A DNA stretch of 64,000 nucleotides from a candidate division TA06 bacterium ADurb.Bin131 (GTDB lineage: Bacteria > Ratteibacteria > UBA8468 > B48-G9 > DTJG01): the NCBI GenBank assembly GCA_002070645.1, contig MWDQ01000150.1:36261-100260 (forward strand), in the 5' to 3' direction. The position numbers and the translations under genes are program-made. Below the pieces are notes generated by a model. That model saw nothing but the letters and a program-made list of their open reading frames with translations. It did not search any database and was not told where the DNA came from. The stretch's first letter is position 1. Every line of letters begins with the position of its first letter. This document shows positions 8,737 through 36,414 of the stretch, piece after piece.

Positions 8737-10400
8737 GGCTTATAAAAAAGCAAGATTTTAGGGTGGGCATAAATCATATCATGAAGGGTCCAGTCACAAT
8801 CAAAATATAGTTGACCAAAATGAGGTTCATTCTCAAAGATTTTTTTAAGCACAAATCCTTTTTTTTGGCAAAAATCTATCTTGTTTTGCATTTCCTTAAC
8901 TCTACTACCATAGGTAAGAAAATATTGAAGTTCTCCTATAATTAGAAAACTCCCGGAAGGTGCTGTCTCAAGATCTTTTTCTGATACTACTGCGTATCTT
9001 AATGGATTCACCGGGGGAACCTCGAATATCCATGGATCCTTTGTAAACACAAGTTTTTTATCCTGTGGAATCTCGTTGCTTATATACTCTGCTGCAAGAA
9101 TCCTTACATCCTTACAGGCCATTACCTTTGAATAAGCAACTGACTTAATTAAAACAGCCACAAGAATTAAGATACACAATGAAGAAGCAAAAATTTTTGC
9201 TCTTTTATTTTCTATCTGGAAAAAATCATTAAAAACAGAGCCTGCGCTTAAACATAAAAAAGGAAGTACCAATAAATAATATCGTGCGTACTTAAATCCT
9301 CCTGCAGTAAAAAGCGGCACAAGACAAAGAATAAGCCCTGTCAGGATTATTCTATCTTCTAATAATCTTCTTCTTGCGAGAAAATATATAGACAGGATAA
9401 ACAAAAACACAAGCAACCATGAACCAACCCAGAATGCCGCGAAAAAATTAATGAAACAGTTTATATACTGATATAAGCCAGAAGCACCAACACCTCTTGA
9501 TCCTGTCTGATATAGAATATCTCTTTTAAACTCATTAAATGCAATTATGCAGTATGGAGTTGTTATTAAAAATCCCACAAGAAACAAAACAAACAATATC
9601 AGCATATTTTTGATAAACCTACCAGGAGATTTTTCATAGGTTCTATAATAGACAAAGGGTAATAGGAATATAAGTATTCCTGCAGGATATTTTGTTCCAG
9701 TTGCAATTCCGAGTGTAAAGGCAGAAAATGCAATGTAAAAAAATTTTCTTCTTTTTACAAACATTACAATAAAAAAAAGGGAAACTATAATCCAGAAAAC
9801 CATTGGAATATCAACAGTCATATAATGGCTGTTTATTGAATATAATGGACAGAACCCAAGGCACGCAGTTGCAAAAGCAGCGCCATACCTTCCGCATAAT
9901 ACCAGTGCGACTTTATAAAATAAAATTAAACCACAAATAGCCATCAACAGCGTAATATATCTTCCTGCAAGATACATTTTTGCCATTTCATCAGGATGCT
10001 TGAAGTAATAAGAAATATCTGGTTCTATCTTTATAAATCCTGGTATTGAAAGAACCTTTAATGTAACTGCAACAAGATATATCTGAGAAGAAGGATACTC
10101 GAAAAAATGAGGATTAAAATCAAACCTTTCAGGAGACATTGTGCTTATACTTTTCAGGATATTTTGTTCATCAGGATGAAAAGAACGGATCGCATTAAAA
10201 ACAGACCTTGGCAATTTCTCTGGTAGATTTTCTTTGGAAATTTCCCAGCTGTGTTTGACATATTCTTGGGAAATATTGGCATCTTGAATATAAAAACTCT
10301 TTGTTTCTTCTGAAGGTAGTCCCCACTTTATACCTGTTGTATATAACAAAGATGCAAAGATAAAAATGCCAATAATTATAAACAAATAGGGCTTGTTCAT
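8733..10400 (-). CDS. polytopic membrane protein, putative GT-C-fold glycosyltransferase (paralog 1 of 3)
   Basis: The 555-aa protein has an N-terminal TM followed by the GIKWGLP motif, at least 9 predicted TMs and a conserved ~100-aa C-terminal soluble domain (EPHFG...HPKILLFYKP) shared with the ORFs at 20340 and 23287. It lacks the loop-1 DE motif of canonical PMT_2. Confidence 0.4.
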   Translation of the reverse strand: MNKPYLFIIIGIFIFASLLYTTGIKWGLPSEETKSFYIQDANISQEYVKHSWEISKENLPEKLPRSVFNAIRSFHPDEQNILKSISTMSPERFDFNPHFFEYPSSQIYLVAVTLKVLSIPGFIKIEPDISYYFKHPDEMAKMYLAGRYITLLMAICGLILFYKVALVLCGRYGAAFATACLGFCPLYSINSHYMTVDIPMVFWIIVSLFFIVMFVKRRKFFYIAFSAFTLGIATGTKYPAGILIFLLPFVYYRTYEKSPGRFIKNMLILFVLFLVGFLITTPYCIIAFNEFKRDILYQTGSRGVGASGLYQYINCFINFFAAFWVGSWLLVFLFILSIYFLARRRLLEDRIILTGLILCLVPLFTAGGFKYARYYLLVLPFLCLSAGSVFNDFFQIENKRAKIFASSLCILILVAVLIKSVAYSKVMACKDVRILAAEYISNEIPQDKKLVFTKDPWIFEVPPVNPLRYAVVSEKDLETAPSGSFLIIGELQYFLTYGSRVKEMQNKIDFCQKKGFVLKKIFENEPHFGQLYFDCDWTLHDMIYAHPKILLFYKP

Positions 10401-11116
10401 TAGTTTTGGAACCTGATTTGTATAAGTTCAACAAAACACTTAAAAGAATCTCTTAAAAACCTTACTGTCGTGGTTGGATCATTTGCCCATATTACACCAA
10501 TTTCTTTTATCCTGTATCCTGATTTTACTGCCCTATAAATAATCTCAACATCAAAAACAAATCCTTTATGCTTAAGTTCAGCAAATAGTTTCTTTGCAAT
10601 AGATCCTCTGAATAATTTGAATCCACATTGAGTATCAGAAAAAGGAAGATGTAGGATTGTGCGCACAAGCATTTGAAAAACCTTTCCTGATAATCTTCTC
10701 GGAAATGGTTGCTTTCTGGTAATCTGTGAATCCATTACTCTTCTTGAGCCAATTACTATGTCATATCCATTGGCAAGATAGGGCATAAATTTCTCTATCT
10801 CAGAGATTGGCGTTGATAAATCAGCATCAGAAAAAAGGATAAACTCTCCCTTTGCAACAAGTACCCCCTGAGAAATGGCTTCTCCCTTTCCCTTATTTTC
10901 TTTATAAGAAACAAGTTTGACAGAATTCAGTTTTTTGGCAATCGATTTAACTTTTGACGAGGTTTCATCACAACTTCCATCATCCACAACAACAATCTCA
11001 AAGATAATATTCTGCTTCTCAAAATATTCATTGATATTGTATAGGGTTGCCTCAATCGTGTTTTCCTCGTTATAAGCCGGAATTACTACACTAAGGTTTA
11101 CAGTATCTTTGTCCAT
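10400..11116 (-). CDS. GT2 glycosyltransferase, polyprenyl-phosphate sugar synthase-like (DPM1/ArnC/GtrB type)
   Basis: Motifs: LSVVIPAYNEE...IVVVDDGSCDET...SDADL. The ~240-aa length is typical of Dpm1/ArnC-like enzymes. Confidence 0.7.
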   Translation of the reverse strand: MDKDTVNLSVVIPAYNEENTIEATLYNINEYFEKQNIIFEIVVVDDGSCDETSSKVKSIAKKLNSVKLVSYKENKGKGEAISQGVLVAKGEFILFSDADLSTPISEIEKFMPYLANGYDIVIGSRRVMDSQITRKQPFPRRLSGKVFQMLVRTILHLPFSDTQCGFKLFRGSIAKKLFAELKHKGFVFDVEIIYRAVKSGYRIKEIGVIWANDPTTTVRFLRDSFKCFVELIQIRFQN

Positions 11117-11814
11117 GATTTTATCAATACATATATGTAAAGTTTCATGTATGGAAATGTCCTTGTTATCCTGAATTTTGATTTCCCTTTTTTTCTTCCA
11201 ACCCAGAATGTTGGCACATCACAAATCCTGTATCCGTATAAACAGAACTTCATTGCAGCTTCCATTGAAATAGCAAACCCATTTTCCTTTAAGCGAATAT
11301 CTTGAAGGATACTTCGCCTGTATGCCTTAAAAGCATTTGAAATATCCCTGGTCGGAAACCTTGCGAGATAATATAAAGAAAGACAGACAAACCTTGAAAA
11401 AAATCCCTGTAGTTTAGGCCCACCTATCTTTCCTGCACCTTTCATATATCGACATCCACATATAAGGTCATATCCTGATTTTGCTTTTTCAATCATCAGA
11501 GGTATTGTTTCTGGATCATCACATCCATCTGCCATTACAGGAAGAACAAATTCTCCACTGGCATTTTCAAACCCTGTTTTCAATGCATTTGCAAATCCTG
11601 CAGGTTTTTGATTATAAACCAGCTTTACCTCTTTATGTATACTGCATAATTTTTTTACAATTAATGAAGTATCATCAGTAGAATGGTCATCAACAACAAT
11701 AATCTCAACAAGATTTATACCCGTATATGGCAGAATATTTTCAATTGTTGAAGCAATAAGTTCTTGTTCATTTCTCGCTGGAATAACAATACTCAAAAAG
11801 GGTTGATCTTTCAT
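11098..11814 (-). CDS. GT2 glycosyltransferase, polyprenyl-phosphate sugar synthase-like
   Basis: Motifs: LSIVIPARNEQ...IIVVDDHSTDDT. The DxD-type catalytic core reads MADGCDD. Confidence 0.65.
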   Translation of the reverse strand: MKDQPFLSIVIPARNEQELIASTIENILPYTGINLVEIIVVDDHSTDDTSLIVKKLCSIHKEVKLVYNQKPAGFANALKTGFENASGEFVLPVMADGCDDPETIPLMIEKAKSGYDLICGCRYMKGAGKIGGPKLQGFFSRFVCLSLYYLARFPTRDISNAFKAYRRSILQDIRLKENGFAISMEAAMKFCLYGYRICDVPTFWVGRKKGKSKFRITRTFPYMKLYIYVLIKSWTKIL

Positions 11815-12938
11815 ACTAATTTTTTCTTCTTAAGTTCTTCCATTACAGAGATAAATCTATCTTCAGCAATCACAGAATCAGACCATTTTAATAGATTTAA
11901 CATCCCCCTTTCAAATGAAAAAGTAGGTTTAAAACCAAGAACCTTCTCTATTTTTCTCGTATCTGCATAGCAATGTCTTACATCTCCCTTTCTAAATCTA
12001 TAAGTCACAAGGGGGTGTATTTTTTTTCCTGAAAGATTAATAAGATTTTTTGCGACATCAAGGATGCTGACAGGTTTTCCTGTTCCAACATTAAAATACT
12101 GTTGGTTTGCCTTTTCATTTTCAAGGGCAAGAATATTTGCCCTTATAACATCATCAACCCATATAAAATCCCTTGTCTGAAGACCATCTTCAAATATAAC
12201 AGGTGGCTTATTATTTTTTATCCTGCTAATAAAAATTGCCGCAACGCCTGTATAAGGATTGCTCAATGATTGACGTGGGCCGTAAACATTAAAAAACCTC
12301 AGAGAAACAACTGGAATCCCATAGAGTTTCCCGATAAGTAAACACATTTCTTCTTGTTCTTTTTTTGTAATTGCGTAGATAGAATTAGAATCAAGTAAAG
12401 ATCCTTCGTCTGTTGGTATTGAATCTGCAATATCCCCGCATAAAGGACATTTTATTTCCCAGTACTCTTTTTCTTTTACTCCTGTGCCTTCAGGAATGTT
12501 TCTCAATGCAGGCTTGAAAATCCCGCACTTTTTACATCTTGCTTTACCCTCGCCGTAACTACTCATTGAAGCAGCAACAATCAATTTCTTAATGTGATGA
12601 CGACTATTAACAAGAATATCAAGAAGATTTGCAGTACCACAAATATTTACATCAACATATTTTGAAATCTGATACTGAGACTGCCCTACCCCAACTGCAG
12701 ATGCAAAATGAAATATAAAATCAGCATTGCATACTACTTCCTTTAGTTTTGAATAATCCCTTACATCTCCTTTAACAAAATCAACATTCCTGTTAAGATA
12801 TTCTGGAATATTTCCCTCAGGATGAACCTGTTGATCAAGATTATCAAATACAACAACACCATAGCCATTTTCAAGAAGCGCATCACAGAGATGACTCCCA
12901 ATAAATCCGGCTCCACCAGTGATAAGAACCTTTTTCAT
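11811..12938 (-). CDS. NAD-dependent sugar-nucleotide epimerase/dehydratase (extended SDR) with an inserted Cys4 zinc ribbon
   Basis: It has the Rossmann motif ITGGAGFIGSH, and the SDR fold resumes after the insert. A ~50-aa insert carries CKKCG...x24...CPLCG. Confidence 0.6.
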   Translation of the reverse strand: MKKVLITGGAGFIGSHLCDALLENGYGVVVFDNLDQQVHPEGNIPEYLNRNVDFVKGDVRDYSKLKEVVCNADFIFHFASAVGVGQSQYQISKYVDVNICGTANLLDILVNSRHHIKKLIVAASMSSYGEGKARCKKCGIFKPALRNIPEGTGVKEKEYWEIKCPLCGDIADSIPTDEGSLLDSNSIYAITKKEQEEMCLLIGKLYGIPVVSLRFFNVYGPRQSLSNPYTGVAAIFISRIKNNKPPVIFEDGLQTRDFIWVDDVIRANILALENEKANQQYFNVGTGKPVSILDVAKNLINLSGKKIHPLVTYRFRKGDVRHCYADTRKIEKVLGFKPTFSFERGMLNLLKWSDSVIAEDRFISVMEELKKKKLV

Positions 12939-13873
12939 TTTTTAACCTTAATGTAATAATCCAATGTCTTTTTTAGCCCTTCTTCAAGTTTTATAGTTGG
13001 AAACCAACCAAGAATTTTTTTTGCCAGTGTAATGTCGGGTTTTCTCTGTTTCGGGTCATCAGGAAGACCATCGAGAAACTTAATAGAAATATCAGCCCCA
13101 GAAAGTTTTTTCATTTTTTCAGCAAGTTCAATAATTGTAAATTCTTCGGGATTTCCAAGATTTACAGGTAGATGATAATCTGTTTCTATCAAAAGCAAAA
13201 AAGCAGAAATCAAATCATCCACATAACAAAAACTTCTTGTTTGTTTCCCATCGCCATATATTGTAAGTGGCTTGCTTGAAAGAATCTGTGAAATAAAATT
13301 TGGAATAACCCTGCCATCATTCAGACGCATCCGCGGCCCATATGTATTAAAAATCCTCGGAAGGTATGTTTTTAATCCATATTGTCTATGATAAGCCATA
13401 ACAAGCGCTTCTCCGTATCTTTTCCCTTCATCATAGACTGATCTTGGACCAACAGGGTTTACATTTCCCCAGTAGGTTTCTTTTTGAGGATGTACAAGGG
13501 GATCTCCATAAACCTCTGATGTTGATGTAAAAAGAAATCGAGCCCCTGCTTTTTTCGCAAGAGATAAACATCTATCTGTCCCGATTGAATTAACCCTGAG
13601 AGTTTCAAGTGGAAATTTCATATAGTCAGGAGGAGATGCTGGACTTGCAAGATGAAAGATTATATCTGGTTTTATAGAAATATTCTCAATATTAAATGAA
13701 ATGATATCTTCCTGTATAAACTTAAACCTAATATTTCCCGAAAGGTGTTTTACATTCTCAAAAGAACCTGTTATCAGATTATCAATGCAATATACATAAT
13801 CTCCGTTTTTCAATAATCTTTCACACAGATGACTACCAAGAAACCCTGCACCACCTGTAACAATAGCATTCAT
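12935..13873 (-). CDS. uxs: UDP-glucuronate decarboxylase (UDP-xylose synthase)
   Basis: The 312-aa protein has VTGGAGFLGSHL and the UXS-typical strings YGDPLVHPQKETYWGNVNPVGPRSVYDEGKR and FNTYGPRMRLNDGRVIPNFI. Confidence 0.8.
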   Translation of the reverse strand: MNAIVTGGAGFLGSHLCERLLKNGDYVYCIDNLITGSFENVKHLSGNIRFKFIQEDIISFNIENISIKPDIIFHLASPASPPDYMKFPLETLRVNSIGTDRCLSLAKKAGARFLFTSTSEVYGDPLVHPQKETYWGNVNPVGPRSVYDEGKRYGEALVMAYHRQYGLKTYLPRIFNTYGPRMRLNDGRVIPNFISQILSSKPLTIYGDGKQTRSFCYVDDLISAFLLLIETDYHLPVNLGNPEEFTIIELAEKMKKLSGADISIKFLDGLPDDPKQRKPDITLAKKILGWFPTIKLEEGLKKTLDYYIKVKK

Positions 13874-15192
13874 ACCTTTCTCCCGATTCCTGAATAGATA
13901 AATCCAAGTTTTTTTAAATGCTTCACATCAAGAAAATTTCTACAATCAATAATAAATGGGCTTTTCATCAATTTCTTTATTCTCTCAAAATTCAGTTCAG
14001 CAAACTGGGACCATTCCGTTAACAACATTAATAAATCACATGAATCAACTGCATCATAAGGATTGTTATAAACATCAACATCAGGTACCTCTATAACAAG
14101 ATTTTTAAGAGCCATCGGATCATAACATCTAACCTTTGCTCCCCTTGATATAAGTTTTTTTATTATCTCAACCGCCGGACTTTCTCTTAAGTCGTCTGTA
14201 TCTGGCTTAAACGCTGCTCCGAAAGCGCAAATTTTTTTGCCTGCAAGTCTTCCACCAAGAAGAGAAACAGCTTTTTTTATTGCTATTTCTCTCTGTTGTT
14301 TATTTATTTTTTCTACCTCTCTTAAAAGATTAAAAGAAATGCCAAGTTTTTTTGCAAGATAAATAAAAGCCCTGACATCTTTTGGAAAGCATGATCCACC
14401 ATAACCGATACCTGCATTAAGAAATGCCCTTCCAATTCTTTTGTCGTAACCCATTCCATCTGCCACATTATCAACATCTGCGTCACATCTCTCACATATT
14501 CGTGCAATAATATTAATATAGGAGATTTTCAAGGCAAGAAAAGAATTTGAGGCATGTTTTATTAATTCTGCACTTTTTATGTCAGTAAATAGCATAGGTG
14601 CATCTAATGGTTTATAAATCTCCTCAAATATTTTCTTTGCCCTCTGGTTTTCCACGCCAACAACAATCCTGTCGGGCTTCATAAAATCATTTACTGCACT
14701 TCCCTCTCTTAAAAATTCCGGATTTGCCGCCACATCAAAATCAAGGCCAACTGGCAGCATAATTTGCAGTGTTTTTTTAACCCATTCTCCTGTAAAAACA
14801 GGAACTGTGCTTTTCTCTACAATAATCTTGTAAATGCCAGATGGGTTCTTCAAACAGGTAAGAGCATCTGCTATCTCTGCTGTAACCTTCTCAATTGCCG
14901 ATAAATCAGCCCTACCACAATCTGATGAAGGAGTTCCGACTGCAATGAAAATAATTTCTGATTCGAGGGTTAACCTTTTAATAGAAGAGGTGAAAACAAG
15001 TTTTCCTTTCTCTGTTTCGCTTCGAACAAGATCATCAAGATTCGGTTCATAGAAAGGAATCTTATTTTTTTTCAGACACCTTATTTTCGATATATCATTG
15101 TCAGCACATAAAACATAATGGCCCATATTTGCAAAACACGCTGCTGTAACAAGGCCAACATGCCCAGCACCGATTATACCAATTTTTCTCAT
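13870..15192 (-). CDS. ugd: UDP-glucose 6-dehydrogenase
   Basis: The 440-aa protein has the NAD-binding N-terminus IGIIGAGHVGLVTAACFA, the catalytic Cys region GGSCFPKD and a UDP-binding C-terminal domain. Confidence 0.85.
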   Translation of the reverse strand: MRKIGIIGAGHVGLVTAACFANMGHYVLCADNDISKIRCLKKNKIPFYEPNLDDLVRSETEKGKLVFTSSIKRLTLESEIIFIAVGTPSSDCGRADLSAIEKVTAEIADALTCLKNPSGIYKIIVEKSTVPVFTGEWVKKTLQIMLPVGLDFDVAANPEFLREGSAVNDFMKPDRIVVGVENQRAKKIFEEIYKPLDAPMLFTDIKSAELIKHASNSFLALKISYINIIARICERCDADVDNVADGMGYDKRIGRAFLNAGIGYGGSCFPKDVRAFIYLAKKLGISFNLLREVEKINKQQREIAIKKAVSLLGGRLAGKKICAFGAAFKPDTDDLRESPAVEIIKKLISRGAKVRCYDPMALKNLVIEVPDVDVYNNPYDAVDSCDLLMLLTEWSQFAELNFERIKKLMKSPFIIDCRNFLDVKHLKKLGFIYSGIGRKV

Positions 15193-16223
15193 TTCTTCCC
15201 CTGGGAAAAAAATCCTGGATTTTCTCTTACCCAGTTTATCAAATATTCAACACCCTTAAAACCAGAAATCTCTGGTTCCCAGCCAGTTGCCTTTTTAATA
15301 GAAGCATTATCACTTATAAAAACCTTTTGATCACCAGGTCTCCATCTATCAAAACTGTATTTTATCTTTTCCCCGGTTATCCTCTCTATAATTTCTATGA
15401 TTTCAAGAAGGGAAAAAGAGTTTTGTTTCCCCCCACCAATATTAAAAATACTACCCGAACACACCTCTGCCTTTTCAAAAAGTGTTTTATACGCCCTGAT
15501 AAGATCATAAACGCAAAGAATATCTCTTACCTGTTTGCCATCTCCATAGATGGTAATTCCCCTACCTGAAAGGGCACAGATTACAAAATGTGCAATCCAG
15601 CCCTGGTCAACATTTCCATGCTGAAATGGTCCATATATACATGACTGCCTGAGGACAACTGTTTTCATATTATAAATTCGCGAATAATCTCTTGTATATT
15701 GATCTCCTGAACCTTTTGAACATCCATATGGAGAATGAAAATCCAGTTGCTGTTCTTCACTGATACCGTTTTCTTTATCTATAAAAGCATATCTGGTCTT
15801 AAGTTTTCTTATCCTTAAATTAGAAAGATCACCATAAACCTTGTTCGTTGAGGCATATAAAAAGAATGCATCCCTGGCCTTTTTTCGACATGCCTCAAGA
15901 AGGTATAATGTTCCTGAGGCATTTGTTTCAAAGTCATTGATTGGGTCATCAACAGAACTTGTAACAGCAACCTGTGCAGCAAGATGAAAAACGCAATCAG
16001 CGCCAGAAACAACCTGTTTCAGAAGATTAAAATCTCTTATATCTCCCTGAATAAACTGAAAATTCTTAAATCCCTGACCAAGAAGGAATCTAATATTACT
16101 CTTGACACCCTTCCTCGAAAGATTGTCATAAACAACAATAACATTATCAGGATTTCCTAAAAGATCCAGTGCAAGATTCGTCCCGATAAAACCAGCACCG
16201 CCCGTAATAATTATTTTTCTCAT
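15189..16223 (-). CDS. CDP-paratose/tyvelose 2-epimerase-like SDR epimerase
   Basis: It shares diagnostic strings with RfbE-type CDP-tyvelose 2-epimerases: ITGGAGFIG, FDNLSRKG, NKVYGD, LDFHSPYGCSKG and DQGW. Confidence 0.6.
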   Translation of the reverse strand: MRKIIITGGAGFIGTNLALDLLGNPDNVIVVYDNLSRKGVKSNIRFLLGQGFKNFQFIQGDIRDFNLLKQVVSGADCVFHLAAQVAVTSSVDDPINDFETNASGTLYLLEACRKKARDAFFLYASTNKVYGDLSNLRIRKLKTRYAFIDKENGISEEQQLDFHSPYGCSKGSGDQYTRDYSRIYNMKTVVLRQSCIYGPFQHGNVDQGWIAHFVICALSGRGITIYGDGKQVRDILCVYDLIRAYKTLFEKAEVCSGSIFNIGGGKQNSFSLLEIIEIIERITGEKIKYSFDRWRPGDQKVFISDNASIKKATGWEPEISGFKGVEYLINWVRENPGFFSQGKK

Positions 16224-16317
16224 TTCATTATTTTATCATTACTGCTAAAAAAAATCAGGCGAAACCTGCTGGTAAGGAATTAAAACCAGATAATATGAAA
16301 TTCTTAAGTTAATAAGT

Positions 16318-17172
16318 TCATATTTTCTTCTGGCAAACTGCAACCATTGAATTCCTTCCGCAGAATATCTTCAAAAATGCCTGTAAAAAAAACAATAACA
16401 TATAAACAGGGCTCTTTTTAAGAAAAAAACCAGGGATATCATCAAGGGTAAATATACAAACAACATTAAACCCATTCATAAAACAGAATTTTTGAAGTGA
16501 TGTCTCTTCAAAATGAAATATTTGTGCGGGTATATGAAGAAGAACCCTTGATTTCCTCGTAAACTTAAAAAGACGCGCAATATAAAAAAGTCGGGAGGGA
16601 TGTTTTGGCGTTTTGATTATAACAAGTCCATCATCCCTTATAACCCTTTTTATCTCTTTCAGATAGTCCACAGGATTTTCAATATGAGCAATGACATCAA
16701 AAAGCACAACAACATCAAAATATCCTGAAGGTAATGATAATTCTGAAAGATGTCCCTGAATAACATTAAATTTTTTTTGTCTGCAATATGCCAGAGCAGC
16801 AGGAGAAATATCCACACCTACTGCTTTCCAGTGGTTTTGCTTCGCAATATCAAGGAATATCCCAGCGCCACACCCAACATCAAGATAATTACCCTCTGGT
16901 AGTTTAGTATATTTTCTCTCTATTTTTTTCAAAATCTTTTTTAGATATCTTTTCCTTTTTTGGGCAGACCTGATATACCACCTGTAGAAATAGTTTTTAT
17001 CATAAAGAAAAGTGTTATTTCTGCTTTCAGAAAAAACAACCCCACATCTTTTACATCTGAAAGCATAATAACCTGCCTCGTTCCATGTACTACGGGAATC
17101 ACCCCCACATAACGGACAGATTAAAATCTGTACCTTATTAGTGTCCATATGGCAATGACTCCATCCTTCCAT
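16318..17172 (-). CDS. class I SAM-dependent methyltransferase with an N-terminal zinc ribbon
   Basis: The N-terminus carries CPLCGG...x14...CKRCG, followed by SAM motif I (LDVGCGAGIF). The true start may be the internal MDTNKV. Confidence 0.6.
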   Translation of the reverse strand: MEGWSHCHMDTNKVQILICPLCGGDSRSTWNEAGYYAFRCKRCGVVFSESRNNTFLYDKNYFYRWYIRSAQKRKRYLKKILKKIERKYTKLPEGNYLDVGCGAGIFLDIAKQNHWKAVGVDISPAALAYCRQKKFNVIQGHLSELSLPSGYFDVVVLFDVIAHIENPVDYLKEIKRVIRDDGLVIIKTPKHPSRLFYIARLFKFTRKSRVLLHIPAQIFHFEETSLQKFCFMNGFNVVCIFTLDDIPGFFLKKSPVYMLLFFLQAFLKIFCGRNSMVAVCQKKI

Positions 17173-17801
17173 CTGATTTTTTTCCCCTCTCTTATTTTAC
17201 GAGGAGTATATCTTATTGGAACCTCGTATATCCTGATTTTCTTTTTTGCAATCTTCGCTGTTACTTCAGGACAAAACTCAAATCCTTTACAGTTAAGTTT
17301 GATACCTTTTAAGATATCACTCTTAAACATCTTATAACATGTGGGTTCATCAGTGATTGATGTTCCATAAAGAAGGTTTGTAAAAAAGGAAAGAATCCTT
17401 CCCCCAACATAAAATGAAAAAGAAGATGTTTGATTCTTCCCAAGTATTCTCGAGCCATAAACAACATCAGCCCTGCCCTGCTCTATTGGCTCTATCATCC
17501 TGAGATAATCCATTGGTTCATATTCAAGGTCTGCGTCCTGTATCACAACAACATCACCTGTAATCTCGTTTATTGCCCTTCGAATGGCATATCCTTTTCC
17601 AATATTCTTCGGTTGAAAAATAACCTTAATCAATGGGAATTTTTGCTGGGAAATCTTTTTGAGTATTTGACTTGTTCCATCTGTACTGCCATCATCAACA
17701 ATAATAATTTCTTTATTAATAGGAACTGTAAGAAGTTTTTGAATAATGACCTCAATGGTATTTTTTTCATTATAAACAGGAACGATCACAGAAAGTTTCA
17801 T
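17121..17801 (-). CDS. GT2 glycosyltransferase (short Dpm1-like form); paralog of the ORF at 25005
   Basis: Motifs: LSVIVPVYNEKNTI...IIIVDDGSTDGT...QDADLE. Confidence 0.7.
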   Translation of the reverse strand: MKLSVIVPVYNEKNTIEVIIQKLLTVPINKEIIIVDDGSTDGTSQILKKISQQKFPLIKVIFQPKNIGKGYAIRRAINEITGDVVVIQDADLEYEPMDYLRMIEPIEQGRADVVYGSRILGKNQTSSFSFYVGGRILSFFTNLLYGTSITDEPTCYKMFKSDILKGIKLNCKGFEFCPEVTAKIAKKKIRIYEVPIRYTPRKIREGKKIRWKDGVIAIWTLIRYRF

Positions 17802-18988
17802 TTATTTACAATCCCCTTTACATGCTCAAGAAACCAGAAAAACCCCTGACATGCAAACAGAATTACAAATGGTTCAATCGCAATCCTATAGCGTACAGAA
17901 GCAAGAAAAATCATATGAAAAATTGTAAAAAAAACAATTATACCTATAAGAAATGCCTTTTTCAGATCTAACGGCGGAATAAATAATCCAATGACAAAAA
18001 ATGGAAGCAGCAGTCCAAAACTCAATACGCTGACAAGACGATAAAAAAAACTGCTATAGTCGGATGCATTCAGTACAACATTCCAAAATCTGACAAACTT
18101 CTTCCCGAGGAGTTTTATAAATCTTACAGGATCTTGTTTTATATAGTCAATGGTAATCTTATAAAAAACACTGTCCCTTTTTGATTCATCAATCTGCCAG
18201 ACACCATCAGGAAAGTACCTGCAAGGACCACCTTCAGAATATGGATTATTTCCTTCCCAGAAAACAGCCCCTCCCATTGTTGTTCCCGGAATAAATTTGC
18301 CGAGGACAACAAAATTCCTTATAACCCAGGGAGATAGAATAAGAATAAAACCAAGCCCAGCAAAGAAAATTTTCAACAATCTTTTTTTGTAAGAACCTTC
18401 ACTAAAAAGAATGAAAACAAGAGCAAATGGGAAAAATGCTTCCATCGTTGGTCTGCATAAACCAGCGATACCTGTTATAAAACCTGGAATAGTTCCATAT
18501 AAAGGTGATGTGTCTGATTCAAAAACCCTAATGAACATAAGAATGGCAGATACCATAAGAAATATAAACAATGTTTCAGTAAGTAAAAACCCAGTATAAA
18601 AAATAAAAAATGGATAAACAGAGGAAATACAACCAGCAAGAATAGCAACCCTCTCAGAAAATACTTTTCTTCCGAGTAGATATATTAAAACACTTGTTAC
18701 TGCAGAAATTAACGCCTGAACAATCCTTATGCCCACAATACCAGAACCAAGTTTAACAAGTATCGCAATAAACAAAGGATAAACAGGAGGTCTATATGCT
18801 TTTAATGTTTCAGATACCATTAGACCTTTTCCAGAAAGAAAATTATTTACCATCTTCCAGTATTCCTGCTCATCATCAAAATAAAAATGTGGACCAAGTA
18901 AAAGAATAAATACAATTCTGACTAAAAATCCTACCAGAAATATCAAAAACAAAATATGACTTATTTTATACGAAGTTTTTTCAGCCAT
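17798..18988 (-). CDS. GT-C glycosyltransferase, PMT_2 / ArnT-like (GT39/GT83 family)
   Basis: The 396-aa polytopic membrane protein has a loop-1 DE motif (YFDDEQEY) and the PMT_2-like core (RPPVYPLFIAILVKLG...VYPFFIFYTGFLLTE). Confidence 0.65.
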   Translation of the reverse strand: MAEKTSYKISHILFLIFLVGFLVRIVFILLLGPHFYFDDEQEYWKMVNNFLSGKGLMVSETLKAYRPPVYPLFIAILVKLGSGIVGIRIVQALISAVTSVLIYLLGRKVFSERVAILAGCISSVYPFFIFYTGFLLTETLFIFLMVSAILMFIRVFESDTSPLYGTIPGFITGIAGLCRPTMEAFFPFALVFILFSEGSYKKRLLKIFFAGLGFILILSPWVIRNFVVLGKFIPGTTMGGAVFWEGNNPYSEGGPCRYFPDGVWQIDESKRDSVFYKITIDYIKQDPVRFIKLLGKKFVRFWNVVLNASDYSSFFYRLVSVLSFGLLLPFFVIGLFIPPLDLKKAFLIGIIVFFTIFHMIFLASVRYRIAIEPFVILFACQGFFWFLEHVKGIVNK

Positions 18989-19638
18989 ATTTTTAACCTG
19001 AATGTAAAAAGTGAATTATGTCCATATATACCAATCCTCGGAAGTGAATAAGAATCAAAACTACCCTTCCAGTTTGTAATAACCGCACCAGCGTACCCAG
19101 CATTTTTAACTGTTTGCCTGATTTTTTCGTTTTGACGACCATAAGGGTAGCAAAAAAAATCAATCCTCTGTCCAATGTTTTTTTCAATATATTTCTTTGA
19201 TTCAAATATTTCACTCCACACCTGTTTTCTTGGAAGTTTGGTAAGATCTGGATGTGTTAATGTATGAGAACCAAAGATAACGCCTGATTTTAACATCTCC
19301 TGAATCTCTTTCCATTTAAGGTATCTATCCTTTTCTTTGTCTTTATATCTTTCATGAATTTTCTCTGTTCCAATACTATGGGCAATAAGAAAAATTATTG
19401 GTTTTATCCCATATTTTTTCATAATTGGAAAAGCAATGAAAAAGTTATCTGCAAATCCATCATCAAATGTAACACAAAAAGTTCTTCTATGCGCATTGTT
19501 TTTGATATACTCATATAAAGAAACTGGCTCGTACTTTTCTTTCAATAAAAATCTTATCTGAGATTCAAACATTTCAGGAGAAACGCTTAATGCATCATCA
19601 GGATACCATTTGTTTATTCTATGATATGCAAGAATCAT
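18961..19638 (-). CDS. polysaccharide deacetylase (CE4, NodB homology; ArnD-like)
   Basis: It has the CE4 motifs TFDDG, HSIGTE...H and SHTLTHPDL. Confidence 0.7.
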   Translation of the reverse strand: MILAYHRINKWYPDDALSVSPEMFESQIRFLLKEKYEPVSLYEYIKNNAHRRTFCVTFDDGFADNFFIAFPIMKKYGIKPIIFLIAHSIGTEKIHERYKDKEKDRYLKWKEIQEMLKSGVIFGSHTLTHPDLTKLPRKQVWSEIFESKKYIEKNIGQRIDFFCYPYGRQNEKIRQTVKNAGYAGAVITNWKGSFDSYSLPRIGIYGHNSLFTFRLKIWLKKLRIK

Positions 19639-20353
19639 TTTTGAAGTTTATCCTCTTAAACCTGTATTGTATAATAAGAAATATCATTTTCATACCGAGA
19701 ACAAGTGATTTCCTGAAACTACCTGTTACAGAAGATTTTCCTACCCTCGGTTTATAGTTTACGGGAATCTCGATAAATCTAACATTTGCCTTTGCAACAA
19801 GAAGGGTTAATTCAGGTCCAAAATGTTGTGTTCCTACAGAAAAATGCGGCTTGAGTTTTTCATACAAAGGTCTTTTTATCAATCTCATTGTACAACCAAC
19901 ATCAGTAAGTGTTGTTGTATTGTATAAAAACTCGAGAAGTTTGGCTACAGCCCAATTTCCCCATTTTAAGAAAGCACCCATATTTGCATCTTTCCATATT
20001 AATTCTCTTGTTGTCCTTGTTCCAATAACATAATCAAAATCATCAGAATAGGCGAGCAATTTTATAACATCCCTTCCTGAAAATGTACCATCTGGTTCAG
20101 ATATAATAAAAAGTTCTCCTTTTGCCTCTTCTAATCCCTTCCATATCGCATATCCATAGCCCTGTTTTTTTTCATAGACAAGTTTTGCATTTGTTTTCTT
20201 TACCTCTTCGTCTGTCCCCTTTGCCGCATTATTATTAACAACAATAATCTCGTCAACAAATCCTGATGCAAAAAAATCTTCTATTGCATCTCTGATAGAA
20301 TCTTTCTCGTTATAGGTTGGGAAAATCACACTTACTTTTTTATTCTTCCACAT
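19619..20353 (-). CDS. GT2 glycosyltransferase, Dpm1/Ppm1-like polyprenyl-phosphate sugar synthase
   Basis: Motifs: VSVIFPTYNEKDSI...EIIVVNNN...EPDG (acidic catalytic motif). Confidence 0.65.
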   Translation of the reverse strand: MWKNKKVSVIFPTYNEKDSIRDAIEDFFASGFVDEIIVVNNNAAKGTDEEVKKTNAKLVYEKKQGYGYAIWKGLEEAKGELFIISEPDGTFSGRDVIKLLAYSDDFDYVIGTRTTRELIWKDANMGAFLKWGNWAVAKLLEFLYNTTTLTDVGCTMRLIKRPLYEKLKPHFSVGTQHFGPELTLLVAKANVRFIEIPVNYKPRVGKSSVTGSFRKSLVLGMKMIFLIIQYRFKRINFKNDSCIS

Positions 20354-23335: not shown

Positions 23336-25008
23336 CAGTCATAAGGAATAGATTCAGGATGACTGAATACCAGATTAAAAAAATGTGGTTCACTCTTAAA
23401 CTCCTTGATGATTTTATAATCAGATAGAAGTTTTTTTATGTTTTCAAAAGACCCTCCTCTAACCCATTGATACTCACTTACAACAAAATATTCTGAATAC
23501 TTGATTGTTTCTTTTGATGCTCCGATAAGTATATTATATTTCAAAAATTGAAATGGCGGTGTTCTCCACGGAGAGGGTGCTTCGAGAAGTCCAATTTTTG
23601 ATCCATAAGGAATATTATTATTAATCCATATACCCGCAGATGTTCTAACATTTTCCTGAGAAAATAAGTTCACATACGATAAGGAAAAAATAAATGTATA
23701 TAATATTCCTATAGAAATCAATATTTTTGGAAATTGTTTTTTTATCTTCGTCATACCCAGAACAATAACAACAAAAATATAAGGGTATAATATAAAAGCA
23801 TAGTGAACCCATCTACCTGTTGAAAACCCAAAATAAAGAAATCCTGGAAGTATACTCAAAAAAATCAGTATAAATCTTTTATCCTGCCTTATTAAAAAAC
23901 AAACAACAAGAAAAACAATGGAAATAAGATATGTTGCTGTACCAAGTCCATACCTCAGGGATGTCGTCATAAAATACTTGAGATTAGCAAAATTAGAGGA
24001 ACCCTTCCAGTATGACTGTATATAAAACATTTCATTGATGAATTCTTTGAAAGAAATTAAAACATAAGGGTTTGTCAAAAAGTAGGAAAACAAAAAACAA
24101 ACAAGACATATCAGTATATTTTTGAATAAACTCTTAAAATCAGTAGACACAAGAAATATCATAAAAATGAAAGTAATAAAAACATATCCATAAGAAAGGA
24201 TGCTGCCCATTGAAATACCTGAAAATAAACAACCAGCAATAAGCCATTTTCTTTTCTTCTCATCCATAAATCTAAAAGCACAGTAGAGAGCAAGAATAAC
24301 CCATAACATTCCATAGCAGTAAGGTTTAAGATAATGAGACCACATAACAAAAACAGGAGATATCGCGAACAACATTGACACAAGAAAAGAGGCACTATCA
24401 TCCTTCAAAATATAAGAAGACAGAAAATAAAAACATATCACTGAAAAAATAAAGAAAATCCCACCGAAGATTCTTAAAAGCGTATAAAGACGACCAATTT
24501 TATCAGGATTTGTAAAATAAAAACTAATGTCACTGTGCAATTCAGCAATTTTAAGAGCAGAACAAATCTTCAAAAAAATTCCAGCAGGATAAAGATACGC
24601 TCCTCCATACTCGAAAAAATGCGGGTTGAAATCAAACCTCGAGGGATTCATCTTGCTTAAACTAACAAGAACAGCCTGTTCATCTGCGCCATAGGATCTT
24701 ATCAAATAGCTTCTCATTGAATTTATAATTTCTCTTGAAACAAGATGTTTTTTTCCATTAATATTAATCTCTACCTTTTCTGCAGGATTATAACTGCCTG
24801 AATATGGTGCACCATAAAATTCTTGCATCTCACGTATTTCTTCATGAGCATCCCTCATTAATTCTGAAAGATTTTGAACTTCTGTTTCTCCATTAAACAC
24901 AGAAGAAATACGGCCTTTATCAGGAACACCCCAGTTTATTCCCTTAAAGTGAAAAAAACCTGTTATTAAAATAAGCAACAGCAAATAAAATATTTTTTTA
25001 ACACTCAT
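23287..25008 (-). CDS. polytopic membrane protein, putative GT-C-fold glycosyltransferase (paralog 3 of 3)
   Basis: The 573-aa protein has GINWGVP after the first TM, the string NPSRFDFNPHFFEYGG (almost identical to that in the ORF at 8733) and the C-terminal domain SEPHFFN...HPNPTILIWKRK. Confidence 0.4.
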   Translation of the reverse strand: MSVKKIFYLLLLILITGFFHFKGINWGVPDKGRISSVFNGETEVQNLSELMRDAHEEIREMQEFYGAPYSGSYNPAEKVEININGKKHLVSREIINSMRSYLIRSYGADEQAVLVSLSKMNPSRFDFNPHFFEYGGAYLYPAGIFLKICSALKIAELHSDISFYFTNPDKIGRLYTLLRIFGGIFFIFSVICFYFLSSYILKDDSASFLVSMLFAISPVFVMWSHYLKPYCYGMLWVILALYCAFRFMDEKKRKWLIAGCLFSGISMGSILSYGYVFITFIFMIFLVSTDFKSLFKNILICLVCFLFSYFLTNPYVLISFKEFINEMFYIQSYWKGSSNFANLKYFMTTSLRYGLGTATYLISIVFLVVCFLIRQDKRFILIFLSILPGFLYFGFSTGRWVHYAFILYPYIFVVIVLGMTKIKKQFPKILISIGILYTFIFSLSYVNLFSQENVRTSAGIWINNNIPYGSKIGLLEAPSPWRTPPFQFLKYNILIGASKETIKYSEYFVVSEYQWVRGGSFENIKKLLSDYKIIKEFKSEPHFFNLVFSHPESIPYDWCHPNPTILIWKRKNL

Positions 25009-25688
25009 TTTATAATTCTATATTTTAAGATTGAAAATATTGCCTTGAAACCATCCTTCCAACCTATTTTCTTCCCTTTTTTTCTCGGGCTATAGGAGAT
25101 TGGAATTTCTTTGATTTTATAACCTTGTTTCAAAATTTTACATGTTATCTCTGGTTCTATCTCAAACCTTTCTGAAGTGAGATTTAAGGACTGTAGAAGT
25201 TTTCTCGGACATAACTTATAGCAGGTTTCCATATCAGAAAGTTTTGCATTAAAAACAAGGTTTGTAAAAGATGTAAGAAATTTATTCGCAAGTATAGATA
25301 ATAATGGTAAGGAAGTATTTGTTTTACCCAGAAATCTTGAGCCATAAACCACCTGACAATTTTCTGTTTTAATTGCATTTATCAGTTTCAAATAATCATT
25401 CGGATTGAGTTCTAAATCAGCATCCTGTATAATAACAAAATCATTTTTTGCCTCTTTCAGTCCACACCGGATTGCATACCCTTTACCCCTATTTTTCTCG
25501 AGAAATATAACCTTAAAATGATTTTTTTTATTTCTGTGTATGTTTTCAAGTAATTGTCTTGTCCCATCTGTTGAACCATCATCAATAACAATAATTTCTT
25601 TTTCAACAGGGACTTTTTCTACATCTAAAAGAACCTGCTCTATTGTATGTCTTTCATTATAAACAGGTATTAGCACTGAAATTTTCAT
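25005..25688 (-). CDS. GT2 glycosyltransferase (short Dpm1-like form); first gene of the long minus-strand operon
   Basis: Motifs: ISVLIPVYNERHTI...IIVIDDGSTDGT...QDADLE. It is a close paralog of the ORF at 17121. Confidence 0.7.
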   Translation of the reverse strand: MKISVLIPVYNERHTIEQVLLDVEKVPVEKEIIVIDDGSTDGTRQLLENIHRNKKNHFKVIFLEKNRGKGYAIRCGLKEAKNDFVIIQDADLELNPNDYLKLINAIKTENCQVVYGSRFLGKTNTSLPLLSILANKFLTSFTNLVFNAKLSDMETCYKLCPRKLLQSLNLTSERFEIEPEITCKILKQGYKIKEIPISYSPRKKGKKIGWKDGFKAIFSILKYRIIK

Positions 25689-35622: not shown

Positions 35623-36414
35623 ATGGTAAAATATATTATTATGCTTAAAGCTATTATCCTCGGGTTATTACAGGGAATTACTGAATTTTTACCGGTAAGC
35701 AGTTCTGGACATCTCTTATATGTAAATAATGTCTTGATGAAACAAGTATATGACCTTCCACTTTTAATATCTGCCCACGCAGGAACAATGCTGGCTGTTC
35801 TGGTTTTTTTCAGAAATCAGGTTAAAAGATTGATACTCGCGGTATTCCAATTCAAGAACCCAGAGTATTCCTATGAAAGAAAACTTTGGTGTTATCTAAT
35901 TGTTGCATCAATCCCTGCTGGACTTGCAGGGTTTTTTCTCGAATCTCGTATAGATAAAATATCGAGTATTTACATTCTTGGTGTTTGCTGGATTATAAAT
36001 GGACTTATGTTGATTATTGGTGAGATTATGTCGAAACGAAAAAAGGAATCTACCATAAATTTTTTATCTGCCTTAATCATAGGGATATTCCAGACGATTG
36101 CAATACTTCCAGGGATTTCAAGATCAGGAAGCACCATAACTGCTGCAAGAAATACAGGACTTAATCCTGAACAGGCATTTGAATTTTCTTTTCTTCTCGG
36201 GATTATTGCAATAATGGGAGGGTTTTTACTCGAGATTATAAAAAAACCACAGGGATTTACATATCCCTGTCTTGTCAGCGGGATTGTAGCAATGATTTCT
36301 GGTTATCTTGCGCTTATTGTGCTGTTAAAGGCGATACGCTCGAACAACTTAAAATTTTTCGGTGTTTACACAATACTTTGTGGCATTATAGCAATACTTA
36401 TCCAGCAGATATGA
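35623..36414 (+). CDS. uppP: undecaprenyl-diphosphate phosphatase
   Basis: Signature: ILGLLQGITEFLPVSSSGHL. It is a ~260-aa polytopic membrane protein. Confidence 0.85.
   Translation: MVKYIIMLKAIILGLLQGITEFLPVSSSGHLLYVNNVLMKQVYDLPLLISAHAGTMLAVLVFFRNQVKRLILAVFQFKNPEYSYERKLWCYLIVASIPAGLAGFFLESRIDKISSIYILGVCWIINGLMLIIGEIMSKRKKESTINFLSALIIGIFQTIAILPGISRSGSTITAARNTGLNPEQAFEFSFLLGIIAIMGGFLLEIIKKPQGFTYPCLVSGIVAMISGYLALIVLLKAIRSNNLKFFGVYTILCGIIAILIQQI

Follow-up and report, generated by a model that had tools for sequence, protein, structure and literature searches.

A sixteen-gene operon in a Ratteibacteria genome, predicted to encode a polyprenyl-phosphate-sugar and GT-C glycosylation system analogous to the Arn pathway

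Glycosyltransferases of the GT-C type use lipid-linked donors, and several systems have been described in which such enzymes act together with the enzymes that produce these donors. One example is the Arn (PmrHFIJKLM) pathway of Escherichia coli and Salmonella, in which lipid A is modified with 4-amino-4-deoxy-L-arabinose (Ara4N). Other examples are the systems in which the deacetylation of a lipid-linked N-acetylhexosamine (HexNAc) feeds a GT-C, represented by NaxD (PMC10927774) and LgmABC (PMC4993483), the three-component systems, and the networks of multiple GT-C enzymes found in mycobacteria. Here we describe a locus comparable to all of these, in a stretch of 64,000 nucleotides (64 kb, hereafter the window) from the candidate division TA06 bacterium ADurb.Bin131 (Ratteibacteria; contig MWDQ01000150.1). 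It is a single operon of 16 genes, and we consider it fairly probable that it encodes a multi-branch polyprenyl-phosphate-sugar/GT-C glycosylation system acting outside the cytoplasm.

In the systems with NaxD or Lgm proteins (Francisella NaxD with the ArnC-like FlmF2 and the GT-C FlmK; Acinetobacter NaxD, involving galactosamine, GalN; Bordetella LgmA/LgmC/LgmB, involving glucosamine, GlcN), a glycosyltransferase of family 2 (GT2) is followed by a cytoplasmic deacetylase and then by a GT-C, which is also the logic proposed here, and an aminotransferase is not needed (PMC10927774; PMC4993483). The reaction of NaxD (PMC10927774), deacetylation of N-acetylgalactosamine (GalNAc) linked to undecaprenyl phosphate (Und-P), is the counterpart of that of ArnD on Und-P-Ara4FN. 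As to the differences, the deacetylase in the window is of the carbohydrate esterase family 4 (CE4; PF01522), the resemblance being functional and not homologous, the respective module is part of a much larger array, and lipid A, the acceptor in those systems, is only a possible acceptor here. NaxD itself is a YdjC-superfamily protein and not a CE4 enzyme.

The three-component systems, such as GtrA/GtrB/Gtr* of O-antigen glucosylation or the pentofuranose systems based on phosphoribosyl pyrophosphate (PRPP) and employing a GT-C of family GT136 (PMC11127046), likewise combine a lipid-linked monosaccharide made in the cytoplasm with a GT-C acting outside. The operon in the window differs in possessing no flippase gene, and its GT2s have no transmembrane helices, while GtrB does. 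In addition, the PRPP system uses a pentose in the furanose form (PMC11127046), whereas in the operon a GT2 would load a pentopyranose obtained from UDP-xylose. In the mycobacterial networks (Ppm1 with MptA, MptB, and PimE; PpgS with Rv3779, for GalN on arabinogalactan), several GT-Cs are fed by short GT2s without transmembrane helices, much as we propose for the window, but these belong to an unrelated phylum, sequence identity is low, and the mycobacterial systems include no branch with Ugd and a UDP-xylose synthase (UXS). Both three-component systems (PMC11127046) and multi-GT-C systems are already well known.

The operon is located on the minus strand, from position 25688 to position 8733 of the window (approximately 17 kb), and it is composed of five GT2 genes, five genes for GT-Cs of the PMT_2 family, ugd, three genes for short-chain dehydrogenases/reductases (SDRs, the UXS among them), a CE4 gene and a methyltransferase gene. 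In the order of transcription, with lengths in amino acids (aa), these are as follows.

GT2a, 25005..25688, minus strand: operon gene 1, GT2 of 227 aa without a transmembrane helix (Pfam Glycos_transf_2, E 3e-35)
GT-C573, 23287..25008, minus strand: large GT-C paralogue (Pfam PMT_2, E 1.2e-6), no NCBIfam match
GT-C419, 22076..23335, minus strand: small GT-C (Pfam PMT_2, E 8.6e-15)
GT-C579, 20340..22079, minus strand: large GT-C paralogue (Pfam PMT_2, E 7.7e-7)
GT2b, 19619..20353, minus strand: GT2 of 244 aa without a transmembrane helix (Pfam GT2, E 7e-18), its stop overlapping the CE4 start by 20 nt
CE4, 18961..19638, minus strand: CE4-family protein of 225 aa (Pfam Polysacc_deac_1, PF01522, E 9e-30)
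GT-C396, 17798..18988, minus strand: small GT-C (Pfam PMT_2, E 1.7e-20)
GT2c, 17121..17801, minus strand: GT2 of 226 aa without a transmembrane helix, with a DAD motif (Pfam GT2, E 4.9e-37)
Methyltransferase, 16318..17172, minus strand: SAM-dependent (Pfam Methyltransf_23 and Methyltransf_11, E about 2e-22)
Intergenic gap, 16224..16317, minus strand: hairpin and T-run
SDR344, 15189..16223, minus strand: member of the TyvE (CDP-tyvelose 2-epimerase) family, by PDB sequence matches
Ugd, 13870..15192, minus strand: three UDPG_MGDP_dh Pfam domains (E 2e-56, 2e-35, and 1e-32)
UXS, 12935..13873, minus strand: SDR of 312 aa (Pfam Epimerase, E 4.6e-55)
SDR375, 11811..12938, minus strand: SDR resembling GalE-type 4-epimerases, with a Cys4 insertion
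GT2d, 11098..11814, minus strand: GT2 of 238 aa without a transmembrane helix (Pfam GT2, E 1.5e-29)
GT2e, 10400..11116, minus strand: GT2 of 238 aa without a transmembrane helix, with a DAD motif (Pfam GT2, E 1.9e-30)
GT-C555, 8733..10400, minus strand: large GT-C paralogue, last glycosylation gene (Pfam PMT_2, E 4.3e-10; PMT, E 3.9e-5)

The GT2s are thus 226-244 aa in length, and the two small GT-Cs measure about 400 aa and the three large ones 555-579 aa, while the methyltransferase, with an N-terminal Cys4 motif, has 284 aa as the longest open reading frame (ORF) and 276 aa in the annotation of the source assembly. A preliminary description of this DNA had listed Ugd, a UXS-type decarboxylase, GT2s, a CE4 enzyme and PMT_2 GT-Cs as one operon at 12935-19638. 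All of the listed genes are borne out by Pfam and NCBIfam, and the genes do form an operon, but its extent was underestimated: this interval covers 7 of the 16 genes (all on the minus strand and closely packed in the ORF list, with Pfam E-values of 1e-20 to 1e-56), and the same gene string includes, outside the interval, four further GT2s, four further PMT_2 GT-Cs and one further SDR. Stop and start codons overlap at nearly all of the gene junctions, and at the 3' end the stop of GT-C555 overlaps the start of queA. The sole gap, of 94 nt (16224-16317), contains a promoter-like site and a weak hairpin with a short GC stem and a T-run (16268-16256, minus strand). As the terminator- and promoter-like sites in our scan did not exceed the expectation from shuffled sequences, this hairpin is a weak hint; it may function as a terminator or attenuator within the operon, and the two conserved blocks of the operon (see below) may represent separate or attenuated transcription units.

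Judged by sequence, the best-supported single function of the locus is the synthesis of UDP-xylose. Ugd scores 439.7 bits with the NCBIfam model TIGR03026 (cut-off 189.8) and 488 bits with the TuaD model. The 312-aa SDR matches human UXS1 among the PDB sequences with 365 bits (E 3.5e-108; 53% identity over 306 residues), compared to 168 bits for a UDP-glucuronate (UDP-GlcA) 4-epimerase, about 113 for dTDP-glucose dehydratases (RmlB) and about 100 for ArnA. The motifs STSEVYGDP, YDEGKR, and QTR are kept, and the catalytic Thr/Glu, Tyr-x3-Lys and Arg are present. In a small neighbor-joining (NJ) tree, with the C-terminus of E. coli ArnA, RfbB, GalE, and RfbD as references, this SDR, its orthologues and human UXS1 came together as a single split in every one of 100 bootstraps; the next branch to join was ArnA, with equal support (100 of 100), and the SDR was never placed with RfbB. 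The preliminary description had called this protein a UXS and had named the dTDP-glucose 4,6-dehydratases as the competing identity, and the call stands on all three counts, the PDB score, the identity to UXS1 and the tree. The competing identity was rejected: while TIGR01181 is the top NCBIfam match, it scores 143 bits against a cut-off of 365, and both the PDB scores and the tree contradict it. With the NCBIfam model for ArnA, the protein reaches 117 bits (cut-off 777). By its sequence, the protein is a genuine UXS, i.e., a UDP-glucuronate decarboxylase that is expected to make UDP-xylose. Enzymes of this type reduce the 4-keto intermediate to UDP-xylose and do not release it for transamination. 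Compared with the human and bacterial UXS (EC 4.1.1.35), to which it aligns over the full length, no sequence-level difference was detected, and the genomic context alone is different, the gene being placed between GT2s of the polyprenyl-phosphate type and GT-Cs.

As to the GT2s, all five consist of a GT-A domain with no transmembrane helix according to hydropathy, while ArnC has two such helices, and all five match E. coli ArnC in tblastn, at 24-27% identity, with E-values from 1e-12 to 3e-20 (2.9e-16 for GT2a, 3e-20 for GT2c). The NCBIfam ArnC model scores 27-74 bits on these proteins, against a cut-off of 529. All of the best NCBIfam matches of the GT2s are below cut-off. For GT2a, these are AglJ, PgfS, dolichyl-phosphate (Dol-P) hexose transferase, ArnC, and PpgS. 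GT2b matches AglJ, Dol-P hexose transferase and PpgS; GT2d matches AglJ, PgfS, ArnC, and PglI; and GT2e matches PgfS, ArnC, AglJ, and PpgS, with the PpgS profile matching all five GT2s below its cut-off. In the search against PDB sequences, which covered GT2b and GT2c, the best solved relatives were the structurally known polyprenyl-phosphate glycosyltransferases DPMS, ArnC, and GtrB, with E-values of 2.9e-22, 1.3e-16, and 2.2e-11, respectively, for GT2c, and of 6e-8 (DPMS) and 2e-6 (ArnC) for GT2b. GT2a and GT2c are 49% identical to each other, and a DAD motif can be read in GT2a, GT2c, and GT2e. We predict that the five GT2s are polyprenyl-phosphate glycosyltransferases of the DPM1/ArnC/GtrB class, an assignment made at the level of class and weaker for GT2b and GT2d. 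A separate observation concerns GT2b, which is 73-85% identical across six relatives (L007, L009, L011-L013, and L092) whose neighboring genes are at 41-71%, an unusually strong constraint for a glycosyltransferase.

The five GT-Cs all match PMT_2 of Pfam. For GT-C396, an AlphaFold2 (AF2) model was built from 36 sequences (pLDDT 93.5), and its Foldseek matches were exclusively GT-C enzymes, with AglB, STT3, and PglB at a TMq of about 0.6, and with Pmt4, ALG3/9/12, and AftB also among them, while phmmer retrieved no match to it from the PDB. GT-C396 and GT-C419 are paralogues (27% identity), and GT-C579 and GT-C573 are 30% identical. The three large proteins, GT-C573, GT-C579, and GT-C555, share the motifs GxxWG(L/V)P and (A/P)DE(Q/H) and end in a soluble domain of approximately 130 aa, which in GT-C573 follows approximately ten hydrophobic segments as judged by hydropathy. 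Their matches to PMT_2 are marginal and they have no NCBIfam match, and they probably represent an uncharacterised GT-C family. The acidic residue expected of the GT-Cs of three-component systems, in the first loop outside the cytoplasm, is found in GT-C396 as the invariant D39 (YFDDE), and the large paralogues carry a DE motif.

For the CE4 protein, the only Pfam match besides PF01522 is a weak one to DUF2334, and its best match among the PDB sequences is PplD (6dq3, E 2e-19). In Foldseek comparisons of an AF2 model (pLDDT 93.5), PplD, BC0361/BA0330, PgaB, IcaB, and BpsB were found at a TM-score of about 0.8, and the NodB/PgdA-type enzymes at about 0.47. In the clade of 24 members to which the protein belongs, D59 and D60 (TFDD), H125 and H129 (HxxxH) are invariant and H207 nearly so, and the protein, like the PplD/PgaB/IcaB subgroup, combines a NodB-homology fold, an Asp-His-His metal triad and a catalytic Asp and His. 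PplD, PgaB, IcaB, and BpsB are de-N-acetylases acting on N-acetylglucosamine (GlcNAc; for PplD, PMC8807736). Unlike in these, none of the extracytoplasmic signals typical of the subgroup (signal peptide, lipobox, transmembrane anchor) is found in the CE4 protein. The ORF is of maximal length, its N-terminus, MILAYHR, is conserved from Met1 in 23 of the 24 clade members, and no signal peptide or transmembrane helix was found in any of the 24 by alignment and hydropathy. A C-terminal amphipathic membrane anchor was considered and rejected, the hydrophobic moment being only 0.12. The fold of the model points to a GlcNAc-type de-N-acetylase that, unlike its solved relatives, is predicted to be cytoplasmic.

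The two remaining SDRs would contribute to the sugar pool. SDR344 matches 9RL0 (E 1.1e-91) and 1ORR (E 1.7e-86) in the PDB, and the enzyme represented by 9RL0 accepts glucose coupled to each of five nucleotides for 2-epimerisation (PMC7851689; PMC13098431). With its gene directly upstream of ugd and no CDP-sugar genes alongside, SDR344 may act on a UDP-sugar. SDR375 matches TmGalE (5.7e-46), PelX (6e-41), and BcUGAepi (3.5e-38), and its catalytic Ser and Tyr are separated by some 40 inserted residues that include four Cys (CxxC...CPxC), reminiscent of a zinc ribbon, all four of which are conserved in six orthologues; it may thus represent an undescribed zinc-ribbon-bearing subfamily of epimerases. 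At the position of the Tyr299 gatekeeper of E. coli GalE it has a Cys, inside a conserved RHC(Y/F)AD. A small residue at this position, such as Cys307 of human GALE, admits N-acetylated substrates. Interconversion of UDP-GlcNAc and UDP-GalNAc may thus be as plausible for SDR375 as that of UDP-xylose and UDP-L-arabinose or of UDP-GlcA and UDP-galacturonate.

The gene order of the operon is not restricted to the window. We inspected 80 genome loci around CE4 homologues, with ORFs typed by BLAST against the operon proteins, and 80 metagenome loci around GT2d homologues, and found the order to recur in at least eight non-identical relatives, at 41-85% protein identity, and so it is not a chance pattern. 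Directly downstream of CE4 homologues of at least 41% identity there is a GT-C396-type gene, with a GT2c-type gene next after it, in all eight non-identical relatives (L007, L008, L009, L011-L014, and L092), usually with the methyltransferase closing the block, and GT2b is directly upstream of CE4 in five of the eight; among the CE4 homologues at 39% identity or below, none of the 76 has a GT-C neighbor. On one otherwise syntenic metagenomic contig (L171, 637-2511), the GT-C396 and GT2c types are joined in one ORF of 624 aa (P0273), which may be a Rosetta-stone fusion or a frameshift artefact of sequencing. For GT2d orthologues of at least 58% identity, every contig of sufficient length shows the arrangement SDR344–Ugd–UXS–SDR375–GT2d–GT2e(–GT-C555), with a GT-C always following the two GT2s where the contig allows. 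Two blocks are thus syntenic across Omnitrophota/Ratteibacteria relatives, one being CE4–GT-C396–GT2c–methyltransferase and the other SDR344–Ugd–UXS–SDR375–GT2d–GT2e–GT-C555. Other loci are organized differently. GT2d-like genes at 43-50% identity adjoin a GT2a-like gene, a gene for a DegT-type aminotransferase and a TyvE-like SDR gene (the DegT gene standing beside GT2d- and GT2a-like genes in L102, L104, L110, and L111), and the edge of the cluster in L008 (1-3391) encodes an aminotransferase, a PMT_2 protein of 490 aa and a GT2 of 366 aa, with a GT-C of the MptA_B family also present in that cluster. The array thus also occurs in forms that include an aminotransferase, and the version in the window is not one of them. 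As to taxonomic distribution, exact copies of the CE4 protein are found on a 114-kb contig of the NCBI assembly GCA_029564245.1 and in a number of metagenome assemblies and sequencing runs from ENA, JGI, and Logan, and the named homologues belong to Candidatus Omnitrophica (60-70% identity) and Candidatus Ratteibacteria (50-57%). One contig of 4.3 kb (L011, DYKC01000094.1), binned with a Vermiphilus sp. (Dependentiae), carries the GT2b–CE4–GT-C396–GT2c–methyltransferase block at 47-74% identity, which suggests either mis-binning or horizontal transfer.

The mechanism that we propose, largely from homology and gene order, is as follows. The five GT2s, as soluble or peripheral enzymes, would use UDP-sugars to attach monosaccharides to polyprenyl phosphate on the cytoplasmic side of the membrane, the lipid-linked sugars would be flipped by a flippase encoded outside of the operon, and the five GT-Cs would transfer the sugars to an envelope acceptor, for which lipopolysaccharide (LPS), protein or another glycan are possible. 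Ugd and UXS would provide UDP-GlcA and UDP-xylose, and SDR344, as a TyvE-type 2-epimerase, and SDR375, as a GalE-type 4-epimerase, would diversify the pool, with the methyltransferase modifying one of the sugars. The CE4 protein would most likely convert a polyprenyl-phosphate-HexNAc, made by GT2c or GT2b, into the corresponding polyprenyl-phosphate-hexosamine (HexN) before flipping, and in this way an amino sugar would be obtained without an aminotransferase, to be transferred by GT-C396. As the block of CE4, GT-C, GT2, and methyltransferase is conserved on its own, a separate HexNAc-to-HexN branch is suggested. In the other block, GT2d or GT2e may load UDP-xylose or a derivative of it, and GT-C555 may transfer the product; given that the genes for UXS and SDR375 are in all cases immediately followed by those for two GT2s and a GT-C, formation of polyprenyl-phosphate-xylose is plausible.

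How do these predictions relate to the Arn pathway, of which the preliminary description considered the locus a look-alike without an aminotransferase? We regard it as an analogue of the Ara4N pathway and not as an instance of it. The logic is indeed shared, from the start with Ugd, through a UDP-GlcA decarboxylase of one SDR superclade (with ArnA in 100 of 100 bootstraps), to a GT2 homologous to ArnC, an amidase of the CE4 fold without a signal peptide, and a GT-C transferase. The components, on the other hand, are mostly not those of Arn: when the seven arnBCADTEF proteins of E. coli K-12 were compared with the six-frame translation of the window by tblastn, ArnB had no match (best E 0.49), nor did ArnE/F (E > 3), ArnD (E at least 0.39) or the formyltransferase half of ArnA (residues 1-300), while ArnA residues 319-652 matched the UXS only, at 30% identity, and the sole match of ArnT was a marginal one, to GT-C419 (E 0.03). 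No Pfam domain of an aminotransferase or a formyltransferase was found in the operon or in the ambiguous ORFs of the window, the other ORFs being read by eye as housekeeping, and so the absence of both enzymes, noted earlier, holds for the 64 kb. The CE4 protein, for which a comparison with ArnD had been called for, belongs with PplD, PgaB, and IcaB (TM-score about 0.8) and not with ArnD (8T0J), which ranks 31st in Foldseek (0.44, 9% identity) and which was also not among its matches in the PDB sequence and NCBIfam searches; the earlier expectation that this enzyme needs a substrate other than that of Arn has thus gained support. The label of ArnT-like fared less well: GT-C396 has a generic GT-C fold, with a TMq to ArnT of 0.42-0.45, below the approximately 0.6 of the oligosaccharyltransferases, and by sequence the label holds for these GT-Cs at the level of the superfamily only (Pfam PMT_2). 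Further differences are that the decarboxylase in the window is not fused to a formyltransferase, that the GT2s are devoid of the two transmembrane helices of ArnC, and that five GT2s and five GT-Cs are present, compared to one of each in Arn. That the locus nevertheless serves ordinary Ara4N modification of lipid A, with ArnB and the formyltransferase encoded elsewhere in the genome, would agree with the joint occurrence of Ugd, a decarboxylase-type SDR, ArnC-like GT2s, a CE4 enzyme and PMT_2 GT-Cs, and with the labels of 'ArnT family' or '4-amino-4-deoxy-L-arabinose transferase-like' that GT-C homologues carry in some sources, and the search for ArnB was confined to the window. We find this very improbable, considering that the decarboxylase is a UXS orthologue (53% identity to UXS1 versus 30% to the C-terminal domain of ArnA), that homologues of ArnB, the formyltransferase, ArnD, and ArnE/F are all missing from the window, and that Arn-specific genes are also missing within 10 kb of the block in most of the syntenic relatives.

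A different possibility is that the sugar genes feed the usual Leloir route, in which a polysaccharide or LPS is assembled in the cytoplasm, with the GT2s being ordinary extenders and with no polyprenyl-monophosphate-xylose being formed. Several observations do weigh against the polyprenyl-phosphate system proposed here, and a number of them fit this possibility. GT2b reads EPDG and GT2d reads ADGCDD in place of the DAD motif, which makes the assignment to the polyprenyl-phosphate class weaker for both, the NCBIfam equivalog cut-off is reached by none of the five GT2s, and the 16 operon products include no flippase domain of the GtrA, ArnE/F, MATE, or Wzx type, with no small membrane-protein ORF listed in the operon either. 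GT4 Leloir enzymes and an AsnB-like gene are found beside the block in some relatives, where cytoplasmic use of nucleotide sugars is possible, and the bacterial UXS enzymes known to us serve cytoplasmic glycan synthesis. With regard to the xylose branch, UDP-GlcNAc 4-epimerases are among the best PDB matches of SDR375, and these, together with its gatekeeper Cys, suggest that SDR375 may serve the HexNAc branch and not the formation of UDP-arabinose, in which case the consumer of UDP-xylose would be left without a candidate. We still regard Leloir assembly as quite unlikely, as neither an initiating phosphoglycosyltransferase of the WecA/WbaP type nor Wzx/Wzy or an ABC transporter is found among the operon genes by Pfam or NCBIfam; as the genes for GT2s and GT-Cs, five of each, are intermingled and overlap at their start and stop codons; as DPMS, ArnC, and GtrB are the best solved relatives of GT2b and GT2c; and as a GT-C follows GT2d and GT2e wherever this can be seen, GT-C enzymes in general depending on lipid-linked donors. 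The case of the CE4 protein can be argued along similar lines. Its closest structural relatives act on polymers outside the cell and not on lipid-linked monosaccharides (PplD, BC0361, PgaB, IcaB, and BpsB; PMC8807736), and in one locus (L015) a homologue of 38% identity has SDR344- and SDR375-like genes as neighbors, and no GT-C was found in the 10 kb upstream or in the approximately 1.7 kb of contig available downstream. We know of no CE4 enzyme of the PplD/PgaB/IcaB subgroup that acts on a polyprenyl-phosphate-sugar. The substrate could thus be a polymer (a glycan resembling poly-N-acetylglucosamine, peptidoglycan or a glycan linkage unit), with soluble nucleotide sugars and O-acetyl groups as further options. 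This too appears unlikely: with export signals found in 0 of the 24 clade members and with MILAYHR fixed at residue 1, an extracytoplasmic polymer would be out of reach, a synthase of the PgaC/IcaA type is not encoded in the operon, and genes of the GT-C396 and GT2c types accompany the CE4 gene without exception (8 of 8 relatives).

Some of the genes outside the operon may also be mentioned. A 641-aa protein with a weak match to acetyl-xylan esterases (AXE1, E 1.7e-7) is encoded divergently from GT2a, at 25843-27768 on the plus strand. At a distance of 10-13 kb from the operon, also on the plus strand, are uppP (BacA, undecaprenyl-diphosphatase; 35623-36414) and a gene for a Wzy_C protein resembling O-antigen ligases, with C-terminal TPR repeats (38055-39848). 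PSCyt/PSD1 and DUF1501 genes are present in the window as well; such genes are common in the Planctomycetes-Verrucomicrobia-Chlamydiae (PVC) group. These genes and the named CE4 homologues suggest a bacterium with affinity to the Omnitrophota.

A more specific scenario can be offered for the multi-branch system, and we do so tentatively, considering it possible but on balance doubtful. According to it, the UXS block would make a polyprenyl-phosphate-pentopyranose (xylose, possibly L-arabinose) for xylosylation in the periplasm; a cytoplasmic CE4 of the PplD/PgaB type would have been recruited, independently of ArnD and NaxD, to act on polyprenyl-phosphate-HexNAc; and the five GT2/GT-C pairs would build or decorate an envelope glycan almost wholly outside the cytoplasm, as mycobacteria do with arabinan and mannan, in a Gram-negative candidate phylum. 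In the literature searched, coverage of which is incomplete, there is no mention of xylose linked to polyprenyl, dolichyl or undecaprenyl phosphate. An old EC entry exists for a dolichyl-phosphate xylosyltransferase activity in animals. We also did not find described a UXS branch wired to GT2s of the polyprenyl-phosphate type, a cytoplasmic PplD/PgaB-type CE4 locked to a pair of GT-C and GT2, or an array of five plus five such enzymes conserved in two candidate phyla.

In conclusion, the recognition of this operon calls for caution in annotating such loci as 'ArnT family' or as polymyxin-resistance genes. The five short soluble GT2s, the single CE4 and the two unusual SDRs are cheap biochemical targets through which the surface chemistry of unculturable organisms could be approached. 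If the proposed reactions are true, polyprenyl-phosphate-xylose would be a new lipid-linked donor in bacterial glycobiology, and the CE4 protein would represent a third fold, besides those of ArnD and NaxD, to have been independently recruited for deacylating lipid-linked amino sugars. It would also follow that uncultured candidate phyla related to the PVC group use arrays of GT-C enzymes for their envelopes, an arrangement otherwise typical of mycobacteria and of the eukaryotic endoplasmic reticulum.

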